Shown: positions 4,232-64,000, counted from the first letter of the stretch. The stretch is DNA of 64,000 nt from Dictyostelium discoideum (GCA_000004695.1 CM000151.3:864001-928000); one strand, 5' to 3'. Numbers and translations are program-made. Notes: generated by a model not told the origin, from the letters alone.

Positions 4232-5954
4232 ATGAATTATGTTGAAAAGTTATTTGACGAAGTTCACTATGTTTTTAATTTAAATGCAGCCACTTTAAGT
4301 GGGGCAATTGATATATTGGTAATTCCTCAATTAGATGGTTCATTAAAGTGTACACCATTTCATGTTAGATTTGGTAAACTTCAATTAATTCAAAGTTCAG
4401 CAAAAGTTATAACAATCTATGTGAATGGTCAAAAAACCGATTTACAAATGAAATTGGGACAAGCAGGTGAAGCTTTCTTTGTAGAGGAATCCGATGACCC
4501 AGTACCACCATTATTAGCAACTTCACCAATACCCTCACCAAAATCAACTAGAAGAGCAATATCACCTGCATCAGCTAGTACTTTAACAACCACAACTACA
4601 ACAACCACTACATCTTCATCATCATCTTCATCGTCACCATCATCATCATCGTCAGCAACCACATCACCTGTAAATAATACATCTACAACATCATCATCAT
4701 CATCATCAGCTACAACAACTACATTATTATCACCATCTGTTCAACATATTACCCATACATCATCATCAACAACAACTACATCAACATCTAAAAATTCATC
4801 ACCAATACCATCGACTACAACTAAATTTACACAAAAATCAGGAGGTGGTGTTGGGGGTGGTGGTGATGCATTTGATTCAAAAGAGATGAAACCTTTAACA
4901 TCAGCATTGGAAGAGATGATTATGAATCAAACCATTAATAATAATACTTTTTATAATTATGTTCCACCAACTACACCAACAAAGAACAAGACATCATTAA
5001 ATACATCTACCTCAGCATTAAGTCGTGGTTCATCAAGACCATCTAGTCCCGTTACAATTGATACACAATCACCTATTGGTAGTTTTATAATCGATTGTGG
5101 TAATGATATAAATAGTAATTTAGAGGGTAGTACATTCAGTCCAAGCACCTCACCACCAAAATCTTCAACTACAAATAGTGCTAGTGGTGCTGCTACTACA
5201 ACCACTACCACCTCAACAACAACTACAACAACAACAGCTGCCGCTACTACCACTACTGTAACAGAACCAGTTTCAGATTCTGAAACTGAACCAAAGTTTT
5301 GGAGATGGGGTGGTTTCCCAAAGTTTACTTATCGTAGAAAACAATCACAACCACCACAACCAAACACTACAACTACCACCACTACAACAATAGCAGCAGC
5401 AACAGCAGCAACTTCATTATCAAATACAACCTCACCATCAATATCATTAGCAACATCACAAGATAGTATTACCGATTCTACTATTATACAGCCACCACCA
5501 CCAACCACTACAACTACCACAACTACAAATACAATTATAACAGAAGCAACTACAACAAATATATTACAACCAACACCAACAAATAACAGCGGAAAAATTG
5601 AAGAAATTTTAGATACAGATAATAAAAATGGTGGTGAATCAGAATCACCATTAATCTATTCACCAACTATATCATCAAACGAATCGGATGATGGATTGGG
5701 ATTACCAATAATAAATAAAAATAATAATAATAATAATAAAGGCGCCAATCACTCTATACCAATTCCAACACCGAATAATACACCAATAAATCCATCAATG
5801 TTAACAGAGAATCAACCATTGGATGGTAGTTCATCTTGGACAAGAATGGGTTCATTGTTTAAAATGTTTAAAAAAGATCATTCTGGTGGTAATAATTTAG
5901 ATACTTTATCAACTTCACCTTCAAATTTAATTACACATTATGATAAAAATAATC

Positions 5955-57481: not shown

Positions 57482-59348
57482 AGTGAATATGAGCAATTAC
57501 AAACTATTTCATCGATAATATCAGAGAAGCAACCAATGTCAAGAACTCATGTTTATGCAACAAGTGAAATAGATAGTAGTAGTCTACATGAACTAAATGA
57601 ATATGATGAATATGATATAGTGGATGAAGAATCTTATCATCGTTATGGTCATGATATTCCATATCAACAACAAAATCAAATATACCATTTACAGCGTCAA
57701 CATCAACAACATCATCAACAACAACAACAACAACAACAAAAACAACAACACCATCACCATCACCACTATAATAATCATAATCAATTAGCAAATTACAGTG
57801 AGAGTGATAACTTTGGATCAACAAGCGAAAGCCGTTATAATCATCATAATGATGCACGTTATTATCATGATGAAGATGAAGAAGATGAGGAAGAAGAAGA
57901 AGAAGAAGAAGAGGACCAAGAGGAAGAAGAAGAGGAGGAGGAAGAAGAAGAAGAGGAGGAAGAAAGAGATGAAGGATATGACGGTGATATTTCAGATCGT
58001 ATACATTGGTTACCACAAACTCAAATTAGTATTGGAAGTAGTATAAATAATAGTAGTATTACAAGCAATAATAATAGTAGTAGTGTTAAATCACCAATAT
58101 CAACCTTTAGAAAAGCAGTATTATTAAAGAAAATTGATAAGGCCTTAAATTCAATGCAAAAAACCACTGGTGGAACTAATCCTTATCCATTGGTTGGCTA
58201 TGAAAATACTGATGATGAGGATGAAGATAAAAGTTTTGCAACATGGGAGCAAAATTTACCTAACCCACCATCAAGCTATAACCAAAAACCACTTCCTGAA
58301 CAACCCCAAGCAATTAGAGCAACAACACCAAATTCAGTATCACCAACTCAAAATGTAACATCACCAACCCAAAATCCAATATCGCCACCACCAACTACTA
58401 CAACAACAACCACCACCACTACTACCACTGCCACAATAACTAATAAAAACGATGGTAACAACATCAATGAAAATAAGAGATCAACACCATCACCACTATC
58501 AATTCAACAAACACCAAAAAGAGTTACACCTAAAAAAGATAACGGAAATCATTCAGCAAAAAAAACATTAAGTTCTGGATATATTACAAATTTGGTTACA
58601 CCAAATAAAAAACAATATCAACAACAACAACAACAACAACATCACCATGGTGATAATGAGTCTTCAGGATTATCAGTTAGTAGAGAGATTGAACAGTCAA
58701 TAGAATCTTCACTTTTAATGGGACAGGCAACTCCATCAAGAATAAGATTCCAACAATATCAACAATCACCTTCATCTTTACACCACCACCACCACCATCA
58801 CAACCAACATATCCGTTATCAAGATAGTAACACTCATAATTATCACCAAACTCCTCCACCACCTCAACCATCATCTTTAGTATACCAACCAGAGACTCTA
58901 TATGATCCATACTATCAACCACAACCAACACCAACCCAAAATACACCAACACCAACTATTTTTGAAAACTTTCAACAGTATGGTTCATTCTTTCCACCTC
59001 AATCTCCATCACCAGCTACACCTTTACACAACAACAATAACAACTACAATATTAATAATAACCACAACAACAACAACAATAATAATAATCAACAGTACCA
59101 AGAGAGTCCAGAACAAAAAAGTCAAGCCATTCGATTATTGGAGAGTAAAAAACTCTTATTACAAGTTTACAAGTTTTTAGAAGATAGCACCAACATTCAA
59201 GACTTAACATTTATGAACCTAATATTTAAAGAATTGGCCAATATTAATTCATCCTCATTGTGGGAAAAATCATTCCACTCTATTAACGAATTGGTACAAA
59301 ATGACAAGATTGAAAGGATTTTACAATTGCATATTCAAAGACAACAGC

Positions 59349-59394
<46 letters not shown>

Positions 59395-59588
59395 GCAACA
59401 ACAACAACAACAACAACAACAACAACTTCAACAACAGCAAAATTTAATGTTCCAACAACAAAACTTACATCAACACAACCAACACCCACATCAACACAAC
59501 CAACCATACTCATCACTACCTCACTATGAGTCATTTCAACCAACACAACAACAACACCAATCATACCACCAACCAATATCACAGCAGC

Positions 59589-59629
<41 letters not shown>

Positions 59630-60098
59630 CCAGATGCAGTGAACTTTGATATAAATAATATTAGTAGTATTGATAATATAAATGGTAGTAATAATTATCT
59701 CCATCAATCTATAAACCACAACCAACCTCCTCCATTCTATGGTCAACAAGCAACTTCATCATCATCACAAGCATCTTCATACAAAACACCATTAAAATCA
59801 AGACAACCACAGCAGCAACAACACCATAAACTCCCTCAAACACCACAAACACCACTCCAATATCAACCAAAAATTATTTATAAAACTCCAATGAAAACAC
59901 CATCCAGAGAGAATGAAAGAATATATTCACCAACAACACAAATTAAAAAAGGTAGACCTTATTCTCATACTTTCCATGCAGAAATGTCAACAGAGGAAGA
60001 GGATAATGAAATTGACAAAGAGTTTTATAGAACAAGAAGAGGTCGTAATATTAATAATAATTTAAACACTATTGTAAATGAACAACACATTAATAATG

Positions 60099-60192
<94 letters not shown>

Positions 60193-60283
60193 TATTAATA
60201 ATAATAATAATAATAATGATATTAATAATAATAATAATAATAATAGTTTTGAAAATAAAAATTTGGAAATGACTCATAGTGAG
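56601..60283 (+). CDS. Large low-complexity protein (polyN, polyQ, acidic E/D runs, SPSQ repeats, polyH); 2 exons. The 3' end is lost in the assembly gap.
   Basis: Exon 1 is 56601..57352 (ends ...LDSVR-AG|GTATGG). The 131-nt intron contains an A(57) run and (ATT)n and ends TTATTAAAG|. Exon 2 starts at 57484 (AG+T = S, then EYEQLQTISSIISEKQPMSRTHVYATSEID...). It is in frame with track ORF 57536..60406, which reads into the N run. Confidence 0.6.
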
Positions 60284-60383
60284 NNNNNNNNNNNNNNNNN
60301 NNNNNNNNNNNNNNNNNNNNNNNNNNNNNNNNNNNNNNNNNNNNNNNNNNNNNNNNNNNNNNNNNNNNNNNNNNNNNNNNNNN
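60284..60383. other. Assembly gap: a run of 100 N.
   Basis: Direct reading. It interrupts the preceding CDS. Confidence 1.
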
Positions 60384-61395
60384 TAATAAATTATTTATTA
60401 TCGTAAAATCATTGTTAATTTTTGTTTATTGTAAATTAGTCTAATTTTTAATATTATAATATATATAAAATAATCTATTCATTATCATTGAAACATTTAT
60501 CATTTTTGTTAATTGTAAATTAATATTTCATTAAATTCTATTTATTGTATCTAATCACTGTTATTGTTAAACAATTATTTTCTAATTTTTTAAATAATTT
60601 TTTAAGATTAAAATAAAACTTTTTTTAAATTATACAAATTATTTCATTATTTTTATTTATTCAGACTTATTTCACCATGTTGATATTTTATAAGGTTTGC
60701 CGGATATTAAAATTTCAGCAGAGTGAAGAAAATCAATTTATCTGGGGCTTGTGGGTTCGTCGCCTCTAAAATAATACTAATAATATGGTTTTTTTTAAAA
60801 AACTATAATATTATAGTTTTAATATATATATCAATGTATAAAATAAAACCTATTATAATAAAAACACATTATTTTGTTTATTATATATTGATATTTAAAT
60901 CAGAAAAGGGTTAATATTTTAAAAATTAAAGTTTAAATGCAGACATATCATAAAATCATTTATTAATTTTGTTAAGTGGTTGTGGTATTAATAAACAATA
61001 ATGTAATTTATCAAAATCTACAATAAATTATTAATTATCACATAAAACTTTTTTTTAATGAATAATAAAAAAATAAAAACATTTATTATTAATTCTGTTT
61101 AAATAATATAAATACTATTCATTAATCTTAATAATTAAAAAAGTTTATTGTTTTTAAAACTATAAAATTATAGTTATCAAAAATGATACATATTCAATAT
61201 CATTATAAAAAAAATTTTTTTTTTTTTTTTTATTTTTTTTTTTCTTTTTTTTTTTTATTTTCTAGTTATGTACTTAATACCAAAAAAAGGTTATTTAAAT
61301 AATTAATTCTAAGGATCCTTGATTTTTTTTTTTTTTTTTTTTCTAAACAATATTTTATTTTATTTTTAGTTTTAGTTTTAAACACATTTAAAAAT

Positions 61396-61842
61396 CTAGA
61401 TTTTATTTTCATTTTTAAAAACACATTTTACAGATATACCTTTGTTTGTATAAACATATACCATTAATGGTGAAGTTACAGTTCTACGTGGCCATATTAT
61501 TTTTCTTTTATTATTGTAGTATTCCGATAAACCATCTGTTTCATTGATTGCATGTTTTAATAATTTTAAAAGAGATTTCGTTGTAATATTCAAAACTTTT
61601 GCTGCATCTGTTTGTTTTAACGAAAGTAGTTCTTCAGTAAATATTATTTCTTTATAATTCTTCAAGCCACCACAATTTTCATAATAATGGTTTAAATAAA
61701 AAACATTTTGTTTTAAAAAATCCTCTATTGGTTTTTCAGGGTACTTTGGTGCTATTTTTCTAATTACCATTGGTAATTTTTTTTCCATCTTTAATTCTTT
61801 ATTTTCTTTTTTGCAATAGATTTTATTTTTCATTTTATACAT
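61396..61842 (-). CDS. Small RWP-RK-like putative DNA-binding protein (148 aa), copy 1 of a tandem pair.
   Basis: MYKMKNKIYCKKENKELKMEKKLPMVIRKIAPKYPEKPIEDFLKQNVFYLNHYYENCGGLKNYKEIIFTEELLSLKQTDAAKVLNITTKSLLKLLKHAINETDGLSEYYNNKRKIIWPRRTV.... The segment LSLKQTDAAKVLNITTKSLLKLLK matches the RWP-RK HTH (LSLED..EAAKKLGI..T.LKK.CR), followed after a ~15-aa insertion by IWPRR (compare RWPHRK). Confidence 0.5.
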   Translation of the reverse strand: MYKMKNKIYCKKENKELKMEKKLPMVIRKIAPKYPEKPIEDFLKQNVFYLNHYYENCGGLKNYKEIIFTEELLSLKQTDAAKVLNITTKSLLKLLKHAINETDGLSEYYNNKRKIIWPRRTVTSPLMVYVYTNKGISVKCVFKNENKI

Positions 61843-62094
61843 ATGGCACTGATGTTATTGTAATCATTTTTCCTTTTTATATTTTTTTTTTTAAAATTTT
61901 TTTCCTTAATATTTTTTTTTTTAAAATTTTTTTTTTTTTTTTCAAACAAACCTTTTTGTTTTTGAGAGGTCAATTAATCATTAATGAGATTTTTTGCAGT
62001 TTATTGTGTATTGTTTTAAGCAAGAAGATTTCAAAACATCACTTAAAAAAATAAGAAAAAAATAAAAAAAAAAATAAAAATAAAAATAAAAAAA

Positions 62095-62134
<40 letters not shown>

Positions 62135-62404
62135 TGGGTACTTTATAAAAATAATTAATATTAATGTTTAAAAAAACTAACTGGGAGCTTTTGTCGTATT
62201 ATAAGTTAATAAAAAAAAAAAAAATTTTTTATTTTTTTTTTTATTTTTTTATTTCTTTTTATTATTTTTTGTTATTTACCAAAGTGGATAATTTAAATAA
62301 ATCCTAACTTCTTTTATTTTTTTTTTTTTAAAAACATTTTTTTTTTTTTTTTTTTTTAAAAATATTTTTTCTTTTTTTTTTCTACACAATGATTTTTTTT
62401 ATTT

Positions 62405-62842
62405 TCAGTTTTGTTCATTTTTAAAAACGCATTCTACAGATATGCCTTTGTTTGTATAAACATATACCATTAATGGCGAGGTTACAGTTCTACGTGGCCA
62501 TATTATTTTTCTTTTATTATTATTATAATAGTATTTCGATAAACCTTTTTCATTGATTGCATGTTTTAATAATTTTAAAAGAGATTTCGTTGTAATATTC
62601 AAAACTTTTGCTGCATCTGTTTGTTTTAACGAAAGTAGTTCTTCAGTAAATATTATTTTTTTATAATTCTTCAAGCCACCACAATTTTCATAATAATGGT
62701 TTAAATAAAAAACATTTTGTTTTAAAAAATCCTCTATTGGTTTTTCAGGGTACTTTGGTGCTATTTTTCTAATTACCATTGGTAATTTTTTTTCCATCTT
62801 TAATTCTTTATTTTCTTTTTTATAAGAGATTTTATTTTTCAT
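62405..62842 (-). CDS. Small RWP-RK-like protein (145 aa), copy 2 of the tandem pair (~90% identical to copy 1).
   Basis: MKNKISYKKENKELKMEKKLPMVIRKIAPKYPEKPIEDFLKQNVFYLNHYYENCGGLKNYKKIIFTEELLSLKQTDAAKVLNITTKSLLKLLKHAINEKGLSKYYYNNNKRKIIWPRRTV... Confidence 0.5.
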   Translation of the reverse strand: MKNKISYKKENKELKMEKKLPMVIRKIAPKYPEKPIEDFLKQNVFYLNHYYENCGGLKNYKKIIFTEELLSLKQTDAAKVLNITTKSLLKLLKHAINEKGLSKYYYNNNKRKIIWPRRTVTSPLMVYVYTNKGISVECVFKNEQN

Positions 62843-64000
62843 TTTATATATATATTTAATTTGGAAATGATTCTATTGTAATTATTTTTTCCTTTGCATA
62901 TTTTTTTTTTAAAATTTTTTTTTTTTTTTTTAATTTTTTTCCTTTGTATATTTTTTTTTAAAATATTTTTTTTTTTTTAAAATTTTTTTTTTTTTTTTTC
63001 AAAGGTGCCTTTTTGTTTTTTAATATTCAATGGTTGATTGAGATTTTATGCAGGTGCACAAAACATAATCAGATAAAACCCTTTTTTTTTAAAAAAAAAA
63101 ATTTAAAAAAAAAAAAAAAAATTGAATTTTTTTTATTTTCGCAAGTTGGTTAAAAAAATCAAAAAATATTTTCGAAACACAATAAAACTCGCATCTCAAA
63201 AAACCATTTAATTATAGATATTTTGAAAAAAAAAAGAAAAATTATTTTGTTTTTTTATTTTTTTGAATTTACAATTTTTCAAATTTTAATCAAATTTTTA
63301 GATAAAAATTTTTTGATTATTTTTTTATTTTTTTTTACTTTTTTTATGAAAGGGCGCCAGTAAATTATCCAAATAATTTTTTCAATAATTTTTTTTTTAT
63401 TTTTTTTTTTCAAATTAATTCAAATAAAACACCCAAAAATCAAACTCATATATTTCAGATTATTAAATTCAGAATATTTTTATTATTAATTAATTGGTCG
63501 ATTTGTTTTTTTCATTTAATAAAAAAATTTTAAACCAAAATTTTTGGACATTTTTTTTCTGTGTATGGTTATAAATAAAAAAAAATCTAAATTTATTTAT
63601 ATTTTTAAAAACATTTTGCAGAAAAAAATAAATACGTTACATTTTCCCCCAATTTTTAGATTTTAATTTTTTACAAAAACTATAAAATATATTTTATAAC
63701 TCGATCTTTTTCAAAATAACTTTTTTTGTTCAGAATTAATTCAATTATTCACAGAAAGGTCCAATATTTTTTATTTATTTAAAATTTTTTTTATTTATTT
63801 TAAAAAATATTTCACGCTTTTGTAAGTTTCATAAATTTTCACAAAATTCTTTAAATATAAACAGAATATTCTCTTTTTATTTCATTCTATAATATCATTA
63901 TTTAGAAAATCCCTTCACCAATAAAATCTAAATCTTCATTAGCAGACTACACCTTATATCGACATTGATTATATAGTATTTTTAGGGCATATGGGGACAA

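Follow-up and report, generated by a model that had tools for sequence, protein, structure and literature searches.

The locus and its two tandem genes

We examined the DNA that follows an assembly gap near the end of a 64,000-nucleotide stretch of Dictyostelium discoideum AX4 chromosome 2 (GCA_000004695.1 CM000151.3:864001-928000; the whole stretch is called the window, and positions are counted from its first letter). An earlier reading of the window, made from the sequence alone (the sequence-only reading), had described behind the gap a repeat-structured block, suggested to be transposon-associated, followed by two small tandem genes with a diverged RWP-RK signature. All the features that it listed are present, some at slightly shifted coordinates; its picture of RWP-RK-like, lineage-specific and fast-evolving tandem genes was supported at the level of remote homology, whereas that of a transposon-associated repeat block was not supported. 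The account that we favor, as probable rather than secure, is that the locus holds two diverged RWP-RK-like tandem paralogues under concerted evolution, beside a neutral AT-rich spacer that is not mobile. The loci used for comparison were L001, from D. discoideum GCA_054859385.1; L002 and L003, from D. cf. discoideum; and L004 and L005, from the gap-free D. discoideum assembly GCA_054883475.1, the contig of which encodes the exact AX4 proteins. The features of the tandem genes are as follows (HTH, helix-turn-helix; CDS, coding sequence).

61396-61833, minus strand: gene copy A, DDB_G0271878 (Q55AI0), 145 aa plus stop, 100% identical to the annotated protein
62405-62842, minus strand: gene copy B, DDB_G0271872 (Q55AH9), 145 aa, 94% protein identity to copy A
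61322-61963, minus strand: duplicated unit A, the CDS with about 75 bp of 3' flank and about 120 bp of 5' flank (putative promoter)
62336-63020, minus strand: duplicated unit B, the counterpart of unit A by alignment
61420-61656, minus strand: RWP-RK-like HTH domain of copy A (aa 60-138)
62429-62665, minus strand: RWP-RK-like HTH domain of copy B, assigned by alignment with copy A

The two copies are arranged head-to-tail with a repeat period of 1009 bp, in agreement with the tandem duplication of a unit of about 1 kb that had been proposed. The core of the duplication (61322-61903 versus 62336-62921) is 89% identical, with long perfect stretches in the 5' two-thirds of the CDS, and a weaker match (61867-61963 versus 62920-63020, 81%) continues to about 120 bp before each start codon. 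A further in-frame ATG, upstream at 61842, would extend the copy A product to 148 aa (open reading frame, ORF, 61396-61842), so that the proteins of 145-148 aa reported by the sequence-only reading are found, and its signature ...DAAKVLNITTKSLLKLLK...IIWPRR is present in both of them.

Both ORFs are real genes under purifying selection. Ten copies across five assemblies have intact ORFs; the ratio of nonsynonymous to synonymous divergence (dN/dS) between genomes was 0.28-0.6, which is moderately purifying, and in three of the four pairs compared across genomes dN was below dS (Fisher test, p=2.7e-5 to 0.002); and the GC content of the CDS is 24%, compared with 13-15% in the flanks. We considered if the ORFs might instead be chance open frames, or decaying pseudogenes without function. 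Both carry the UniProt label "Uncharacterized protein" and are annotated just as hypothetical or uncharacterized, neither has a Pfam domain or a mention in the literature, one array copy in L002 is a pseudogene, and a dN/dS of 0.3-0.6 is rather high. Against this, the ten copies have stayed intact despite a silent-site divergence of up to about 0.4, dN is significantly below dS, the GC content of the array genes steps up to 24% from 13% in the flanks, the domain core is kept in D. citrinum, D. dimigraforme and D. firmibasis, and the AlphaFold model folds the domain confidently; chance or decay is thus a very improbable origin for these frames.

Probable relationship to RWP-RK

The RWP-RK factors (PF02042 / PROSITE PS51519; these include NIN, the NLPs, the RKDs, Chlamydomonas MID and NIT2) have an HTH with an AAKxL(G/N)(V/I) core followed by W-P-x-R, and the same elements occur in the same order in the Dictyostelium family. 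The family segment LKQxDAAKxLNI(T/S)xKSxLKLLK corresponds to FxxPIxEAAKELGVxxTxLKKxCR of RWP-RK, and IIWPxR to RWPxRK; in the alignment, LKQTDAAKVLNITTKSLLKLLK lies on FxxPIxEAAKELxVGLTVLKKKCR and IIWPRR on PRWPHRK. W114 and P115 belong to the small set of columns that do not vary across the family, and the R following x hardly varies; the motif reads IIWPRRT in the window proteins and I(I/M)WPHRN in their relatives. In the Dictyostelium family an insertion of about 11 residues splits the HTH segment from the WP motif, and as a result of this insertion the 49-position Pfam model misses the domain.

The relationship was assessed by comparing profiles, since a plain hmmsearch of an RWP-RK HMM against the family gave at most 9.5 bits and is too weak alone. 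The family domain, aligned by hhalign with a reference RWP-RK profile of 120 proteins, every one with PF02042, gave a Prob of 86.8% (P=4.3e-6, score 32.4), and a second hhalign run on independent alignments gave a Prob of 85.1% (P=6.1e-6). None of 300 column-shuffled RWP-RK alignments reached the score of 32.4 (mean 10.7, maximum 25.2), and the reversed profile scored 10.9. When the domain was split, separate matches were obtained for the HTH half (P=1.3e-4) and for the RWPxRK half (P=6.2e-5), and these were in collinear order.

The family has a second, longer subfamily, and this stands closer to RWP-RK. Its AX4 member, DDB_G0292158, lies on a different AX4 record from the window genes and has the UniProt name "RWP-RK domain-containing protein" (Q54DR5); copy A aligns with it by BLASTP at 45% identity over 77 aa (E=4e-17). 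DDB_G0292158 and its orthologues (proteins P0008, P0009 and P0135, and the N-terminus of P0010) have the same 80-aa domain with the same insertion and an IIWPHRN motif; they are longer (192-253 aa) and have an acidic low-complexity N-terminal extension, which the window proteins do not have. They are also nearer to the RWP-RK consensus than the window proteins, with WPHR in the motif and sub-threshold PF02042 matches in four members (11-17 bits, E 0.005-0.3) over the first half of the profile; the best family member is DDB_G0292158 itself (17.2 bits, E=0.0049, profile positions 9-34 of 49). The longer subfamily alone, compared with RWP-RK, gave a Prob of 94.3% (P=1.1e-7).

Several results weigh against an RWP-RK assignment. 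A PF02042 search matched neither window protein even at E<=10, and every family member stayed below the gathering score (29.3 bits). Taken alone, the subfamily of the window proteins gave a Prob of 49% (P=1.7e-4). RWPxRK is only partly kept, as (I/L/M)WPxR(T/N/C), with the leading R and the trailing K replaced, and for DDB_G0292158 the HTH_37 match (E=0.0014) was slightly better than that to RWP-RK (E=0.0049). No RWP-RK structure was found in the PDB for comparison. A literature search for DDB_G0271878, DDB_G0271872 and DDB_G0292158 found no mention of them, and no expression, localisation or DNA-binding data were found there.

These results could also be read to mean that the proteins are HTH proteins of another or independent origin (e.g., LuxR/GerE-like or sigma-70 region 4-like), their likeness to WPxR arising by chance. 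The sole Pfam match of the window proteins is to PhyR_sigma-like (E=0.23, aa 77-101; E=0.0095-0.014 in the orthologues), the weak matches across the family are to PhyR_sigma-like, HTH_37 and HTH_31, HTH_37 outscores RWP-RK for DDB_G0292158, and the PF02042 threshold is reached by none. However, the RWPxRK half alone matches the IIWPxR segment, and this lies downstream of the HTH as in true RWP-RK; W and P are invariant throughout the family; the real hhalign score was never reached by shuffled or reversed profiles; and the paralogue Q54DR5 is already called RWP-RK by UniProt. The matches to other HTH folds do not contradict an RWP-RK relationship, because RWP-RK is itself an HTH-type domain. 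All the scores to the bacterial-type tetra-helical HTH families (GerE/NarL/LuxR, sigma-70 region 4, PhyR sigma-like) are below significance and, unlike the Dictyostelium family, these families are bacterial, have other partner domains and are without a WPxR motif. We therefore regard a separate origin as unlikely, while giving it some weight. The domain is probably a strongly diverged RWP-RK-type HTH domain, judged by its sequence, and not a demonstrated member; the "diverged RWP-RK signature" was not borne out by PF02042, and it is supported as a probable remote homology by the profile-profile comparison and by the paralogue DDB_G0292158.

The differences from the RWP-RK factors are considerable. 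The Dictyostelium proteins fall below the Pfam threshold, have about 11 additional residues separating the HTH from the WP motif, have I/L/M in place of the first R and T/N/C in place of the final K, have no PB1 or nitrate-responsive domain, and are limited to the D. discoideum species group. As small, nearly single-domain proteins they would resemble MID and the RKDs. For D. discoideum, only two Pfam-detectable RWP-RK domains have been reported, and these are thought to be horizontally acquired (PMC7399023).

Predicted fold of the domain

An AlphaFold model based on nine family sequences had a predicted local distance difference test (pLDDT) value of 68-85 over aa 60-138; an earlier model made from 5 near-identical sequences had a pLDDT of 40.8 and was unusable. 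The predicted order of elements in copy A is a strand, a three-helix HTH (aa 67-98), the insertion of about 11 aa with a short helix, IIWPRR (aa 112-117), a helix and a strand. Lysines abound in roughly the first 58 residues, for which the model confidence is low, and the N-terminal part of about 55 aa is probably disordered as well as lysine-rich. A Foldseek comparison of the model with the PDB gave no match with E<2, and an HMM search of the PDB with the family profile gave one match, to IF6 (E=0.65), which is spurious.

Family distribution and evolution of the array

Members of the family were sought by scanning 1.84 billion representative proteins exhaustively with a HMMER profile and by two word-index scans, and were seen only in the D. 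discoideum group (discoideum, cf. discoideum, citrinum, dimigraforme and firmibasis). They form two subfamilies, the tandem genes of 126-148 aa and the paralogue of 192-253 aa that DDB_G0292158 represents in AX4. By the exhaustive protein searches, each genome has this array and one other paralogous locus, with no dispersed copies. The array holds the same place in five assemblies, beside the same spacer and the same gene rich in asparagine and glutamine codons (the poly-N/Q gene). Its copy number ranges from 2 to 5: 2 intact copies are present in each of the window, L001 and L003, the gap-free AX4-like contig has gene calls for the same two proteins as the window, and L002 has 4 intact copies and one pseudogene with stop codons.

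The flanks of the copies are positionally orthologous, AX4 A with L001 copy a and AX4 B with L001 copy b. The coding regions of AX4 A and B are 96.5% identical (dS 0.08) and those of L003 a and b are 98.9% identical, whereas AX4 and L001 coding regions are 89-91% identical (dS 0.23-0.24). Orthologous flanks, combined with coding regions that resemble each other most inside one genome, are the mark of gene conversion acting on an old duplication, along with unequal crossing-over. The array is thus a tandem pair under concerted evolution, being head-to-tail, at an orthologous position, and with paralogues that are more alike than orthologues. The tandem array predates the split of the D. discoideum cryptic species; it evolves by unequal crossing-over (2-5 copies, with one pseudogene), and gene conversion keeps the paralogues of one genome closer to each other than to their positional orthologues. 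The head-to-tail arrangement, the variation in copy number, the pseudogene and the within-genome likeness are all shared with other tandem arrays that evolve in concert; this array differs from typical ones in being very small and in a conversion tract limited to the coding region and short flanks. The suggestion that the locus is fast-evolving and lineage-specific agrees with the restriction of the family to the D. discoideum group, with 2-5 copies of which one is a pseudogene, with a dN/dS of 0.3-0.6 and with gene conversion.

The post-gap block and the spacer

The DNA between the assembly gap and copy A has the following features.

60384-61395, no strand: post-gap block, the gene-proximal end of a 6.9-kb non-coding spacer and the 3' flank of copy A
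60385-60457 and 60469-60541, plus strand: two 73-nt direct repeats, spaced by 84 bp and 73% identical, which hold the repeats quoted by the sequence-only reading
60801-60818, no strand: perfect 18-nt palindrome AACTATAATATTATAGTT (previously placed at about 60793)
61158-61175, no strand: near-palindrome AACTATAAAATTATAGTT, a diverged direct copy of the first palindrome, 357 nt away

The post-gap block has a GC content of 14.5% and few homopolymers up to about 61200. A/T runs of at least 8 cover 2% of 60385-61200 (longest run 8), against a median of 15% for low-GC windows of the same size, and so the lack of long homopolymers that had been remarked upon is real; the coverage is 15-34% in neighbouring intergenic stretches and returns to a normal 34% from 61201 on. 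The quoted direct repeats lie at 60409-60438 and 60500-60523, and a third, partial copy of the 73-nt repeat is found at 60946-60978. The best 60-nt repeat window of the block has 45 matches, more than in any of 200 dinucleotide shuffles (at most 42); on the same measure, scores of 38-60 were obtained for 13 further non-coding blocks of the window, and the block is therefore not richer in repeats than its surroundings. The palindrome count was matched by 11 of 200 shuffles and is inside the range of the control blocks, and AACTATAATATTATAGTT and AACTATAAAATTATAGTT have no further exact matches anywhere in the window. The palindromes were also considered as conserved binding sites, and this was rejected, their symmetry being lost in the orthologous DNA of L001.

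The spacer is syntenic in four other genomes. It is collinear over its whole length in L001, L002 and L003, between the same two genes, at about 75-87% identity, which is near the level that silent sites of the neighbouring genes would predict (dS 0.15-0.4); 60765-61230 aligns at 84-85% with the syntenic L001 spacer. No second copy of the post-gap block was found in the 64-kb window or at non-syntenic sites in 85 kb of related loci. The block contains no ORF longer than 63 aa (transposon domains were not sought beyond this ORF list), and neither terminal repeats nor ORFs of a transposon. A tRNA gene is likewise absent, and Rfam, run at E<=1 on 58000-64000, gave no match; L001-L003 had no Rfam match at the gathering score. 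From these comparisons of sequence the post-gap block is the proximal kilobase of a 6.9-kb, neutrally evolving AT-rich spacer, and no evidence of a mobile element was found, although no Dictyostelium repeat library was searched. The repeat-structured, transposon-associated block of the sequence-only reading is instead unique DNA, syntenic with other strains, with repeats at the background level.

One patch at 60672-60709, TTTCACCATGTTGATATTTTATAAGGTTTGCCGGATAT, to the left of a GC-rich island described below, is well conserved in L002 (15603-15685, minus strand); the DNA around it, including the GC island, is not. The patch overlaps an open frame of 30-34 codons, read by eye, the length of which is not conserved. 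This frame, which runs over the GC island (60665-60769), was tried as an exon and rejected: only about the first 12 of its codons are kept in L002, followed by a stop, and it is absent from L001 and L003.

Transposon traces near the array

63696-63771, plus strand: solo terminal inverted repeat (TIR) of about 75 nt with a sharp end, ...TTATTCACAGAAAGGTCCAATA, about 850 bp upstream of copy B, on its promoter side

This solo TIR is the only transposon trace; it lies outside the range covered by the sequence-only reading, across the genes from the post-gap block. Sites related to it occur at L002 600-2417 and 4118-4793, at L001 3121-3195 and at L005 7601-8176. In L002, an ORF that matches Pfam DDE_Tnp_4 (E=1.3e-11) is enclosed by one inverted TIR pair, and a derivative of about 0.7 kb by another; in the gap-free AX4-like contig (L005), a complete derivative of about 0.6 kb lies just past the position of the window end.

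We asked if the genes and the post-gap block could belong to a transposable element, or have come with one. The TIR upstream of copy B derives from a DDE_Tnp_4 (Harbinger-like) transposon, an intact element and a short derivative adjoin the array in L002, the L005 derivative lies close by, and in L001 a gene model with a weak rve (integrase) flag adjoins the array. However, the array has an identical position in five assemblies, beside the same poly-N/Q gene and long spacer; its units are not bracketed by terminal repeats; the family consists in each genome of the array and one paralogous locus, without dispersed copies; and the 60384-61400 block is single-copy, syntenic and without transposon ORFs. 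It is therefore highly unlikely that either genes or block are part of, or cargo from, such an element.

The L001 gene model contains, at 4865-5272, an ORF with a cysteine-rich start (…CDYCQRDK…). This may be a retrotransposon integrase remnant adjoining the array; the ORF alone gave no Pfam match.

The GC island

60744-60766, no strand: isolated GC-rich 23-mer GGGGCTTGTGGGTTCGTCGCCTC (previously placed at 60741-60763)

The island is absent or degenerate in the three related genomes compared, L001 and L002 among them. On its minus strand it holds ACCCACAA (60756-60749), which fits the consensus [AT]CCCA[CT]AA of the DUSE promoter element. DUSE sits about 60 nt upstream of Dictyostelium non-coding RNA genes, and the Class I RNAs are about 60 nt long with a terminal stem, an 11-nt motif and a CUGU end (PMC7919456). 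The agreement with the consensus could mean that the island acts as a minus-strand DUSE for the gene of a Class I-like RNA some 60 nt downstream. Against this, DUSE-like octamers occur in the window at chance frequency (7 found versus 9.35 expected), this one shows no conservation in L002 and L001 lacks it, no Rfam match at E<=1 lies near the island, and the sequence downstream of it has none of the Class I hallmarks, i.e., the terminal stem, the 11-nt motif or the CUGU end (PMC7919456). We give such a promoter hardly any credence, and the GC island is treated here as an unconserved oddity. A tRNA or tRNA-like origin, considered because of the B-box-like GGTTCGTCGCC, was rejected when ARAGORN found no such gene in the window or in L001-L003.

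The assembly gap and what it hides

60284-60383, no strand: assembly gap of exactly 100 N, with sequence resuming at 60384

The gap-free assembly allows the missing DNA to be read. Window 58717-60272 matches L005 20438-18883 at 99.94% identity, and window 60384-64000 matches L005 12458-8843 at 99.86% identity; L005 12459-18871 falls between the two flank matches and is the stretch behind the 100 N. Since the gap-free contig matches both flanks with this stretch between them, the 100 N represent about 6.4 kb. About 0.5 kb of this completes the upstream poly-N/Q gene at its 3' end, and about 5.9 kb is AT-rich spacer with a GC content of 7-19% and many poly-A tracts. The hidden spacer has no ORF of at least 82 aa, and Rfam at E<=1 matched no family on the gap sequence. 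Low-complexity tandem repeats occur within it, with units of 150 bp (x1.9), 77 bp (x2.4) and 175 bp (x2.7). The gap probably arose because AX4 sequencing failed to cross this long AT-rich spacer.

In the window, a poly-N/Q-rich ORF at 57536-60406 (plus strand, 956 aa) seemingly reads across the N run. In the gap-free contig the ORF goes on for about 120 further residues (...NCIDLVSILYLFNYSQK*), with a gene model of 1315 aa, and the gap-spanning ORF to 60406 is therefore an artefact. As a correction to the reference, the 100-N gap of AX4 chromosome 2 stands for about 6.4 kb with the 3' end of the poly-N/Q gene and the AT-rich spacer.

The 175-bp repeat lies at L005 17093-17566, inside the AX4 gap (the plus strand of the window is the minus strand of L005). 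Within each unit some 45 nt form a conserved core of higher GC content, TTTTATCATGATAGTGAAGGAGGATATACCAAAACACTTGATGAAAAA; the repeat region, which has no Rfam match, is also found in the spacers of L001, L002 and L003.

Putative function and implications

By analogy with the RWP-RK factors, the window proteins would be nuclear, sequence-specific DNA-binding regulators of transcription. Entry into the nucleus would be consistent with the lysine-rich N-terminus, and the HTH would bind DNA, helped by the WPxR segment, in the way assumed for RWP-RK factors. It is on this analogy that we infer sequence-specific DNA binding and transcription-factor activity. For a more specific role, the relationship of the domain, the small size of the proteins and the evolutionary dynamics of the array lead to the idea of young, copy-number-variable RWP-RK-derived regulators of the D. 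discoideum complex, perhaps acting in the sexual (macrocyst) cycle or in strain or species recognition; we put this forward as a speculation that is improbable as it stands. If it were true, the part that MID, the RKDs and other small RWP-RK proteins play in gametes and mating type would reach from the green lineage to the Amoebozoa.

For the annotation of AX4, two "uncharacterized" genes gain a testable description as predicted HTH DNA-binding proteins, and a further group missed by Pfam (the two tandem genes, DDB_G0292158 and its orthologues) would widen the RWP-RK repertoire of the dictyostelids. The more general point is that an internal insertion can conceal a known domain from its model. 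This is a useful but ordinary improvement in the annotation of hypothetical genes that were already annotated, and it should not surprise a specialist.

Gene models in the newer assemblies

Some of the gene models called at these loci in the newer assemblies look chimeric, namely L002 10001-14199, L002 2580-6618 and P0010. The protein P0002 (214 aa) joins pieces of several array copies, and an L002 model with a DDE_1 Pfam match runs into the first array copy. In D. dimigraforme, P0010 fuses the RWP-RK-like domain to the condensin subunit Cnd2.

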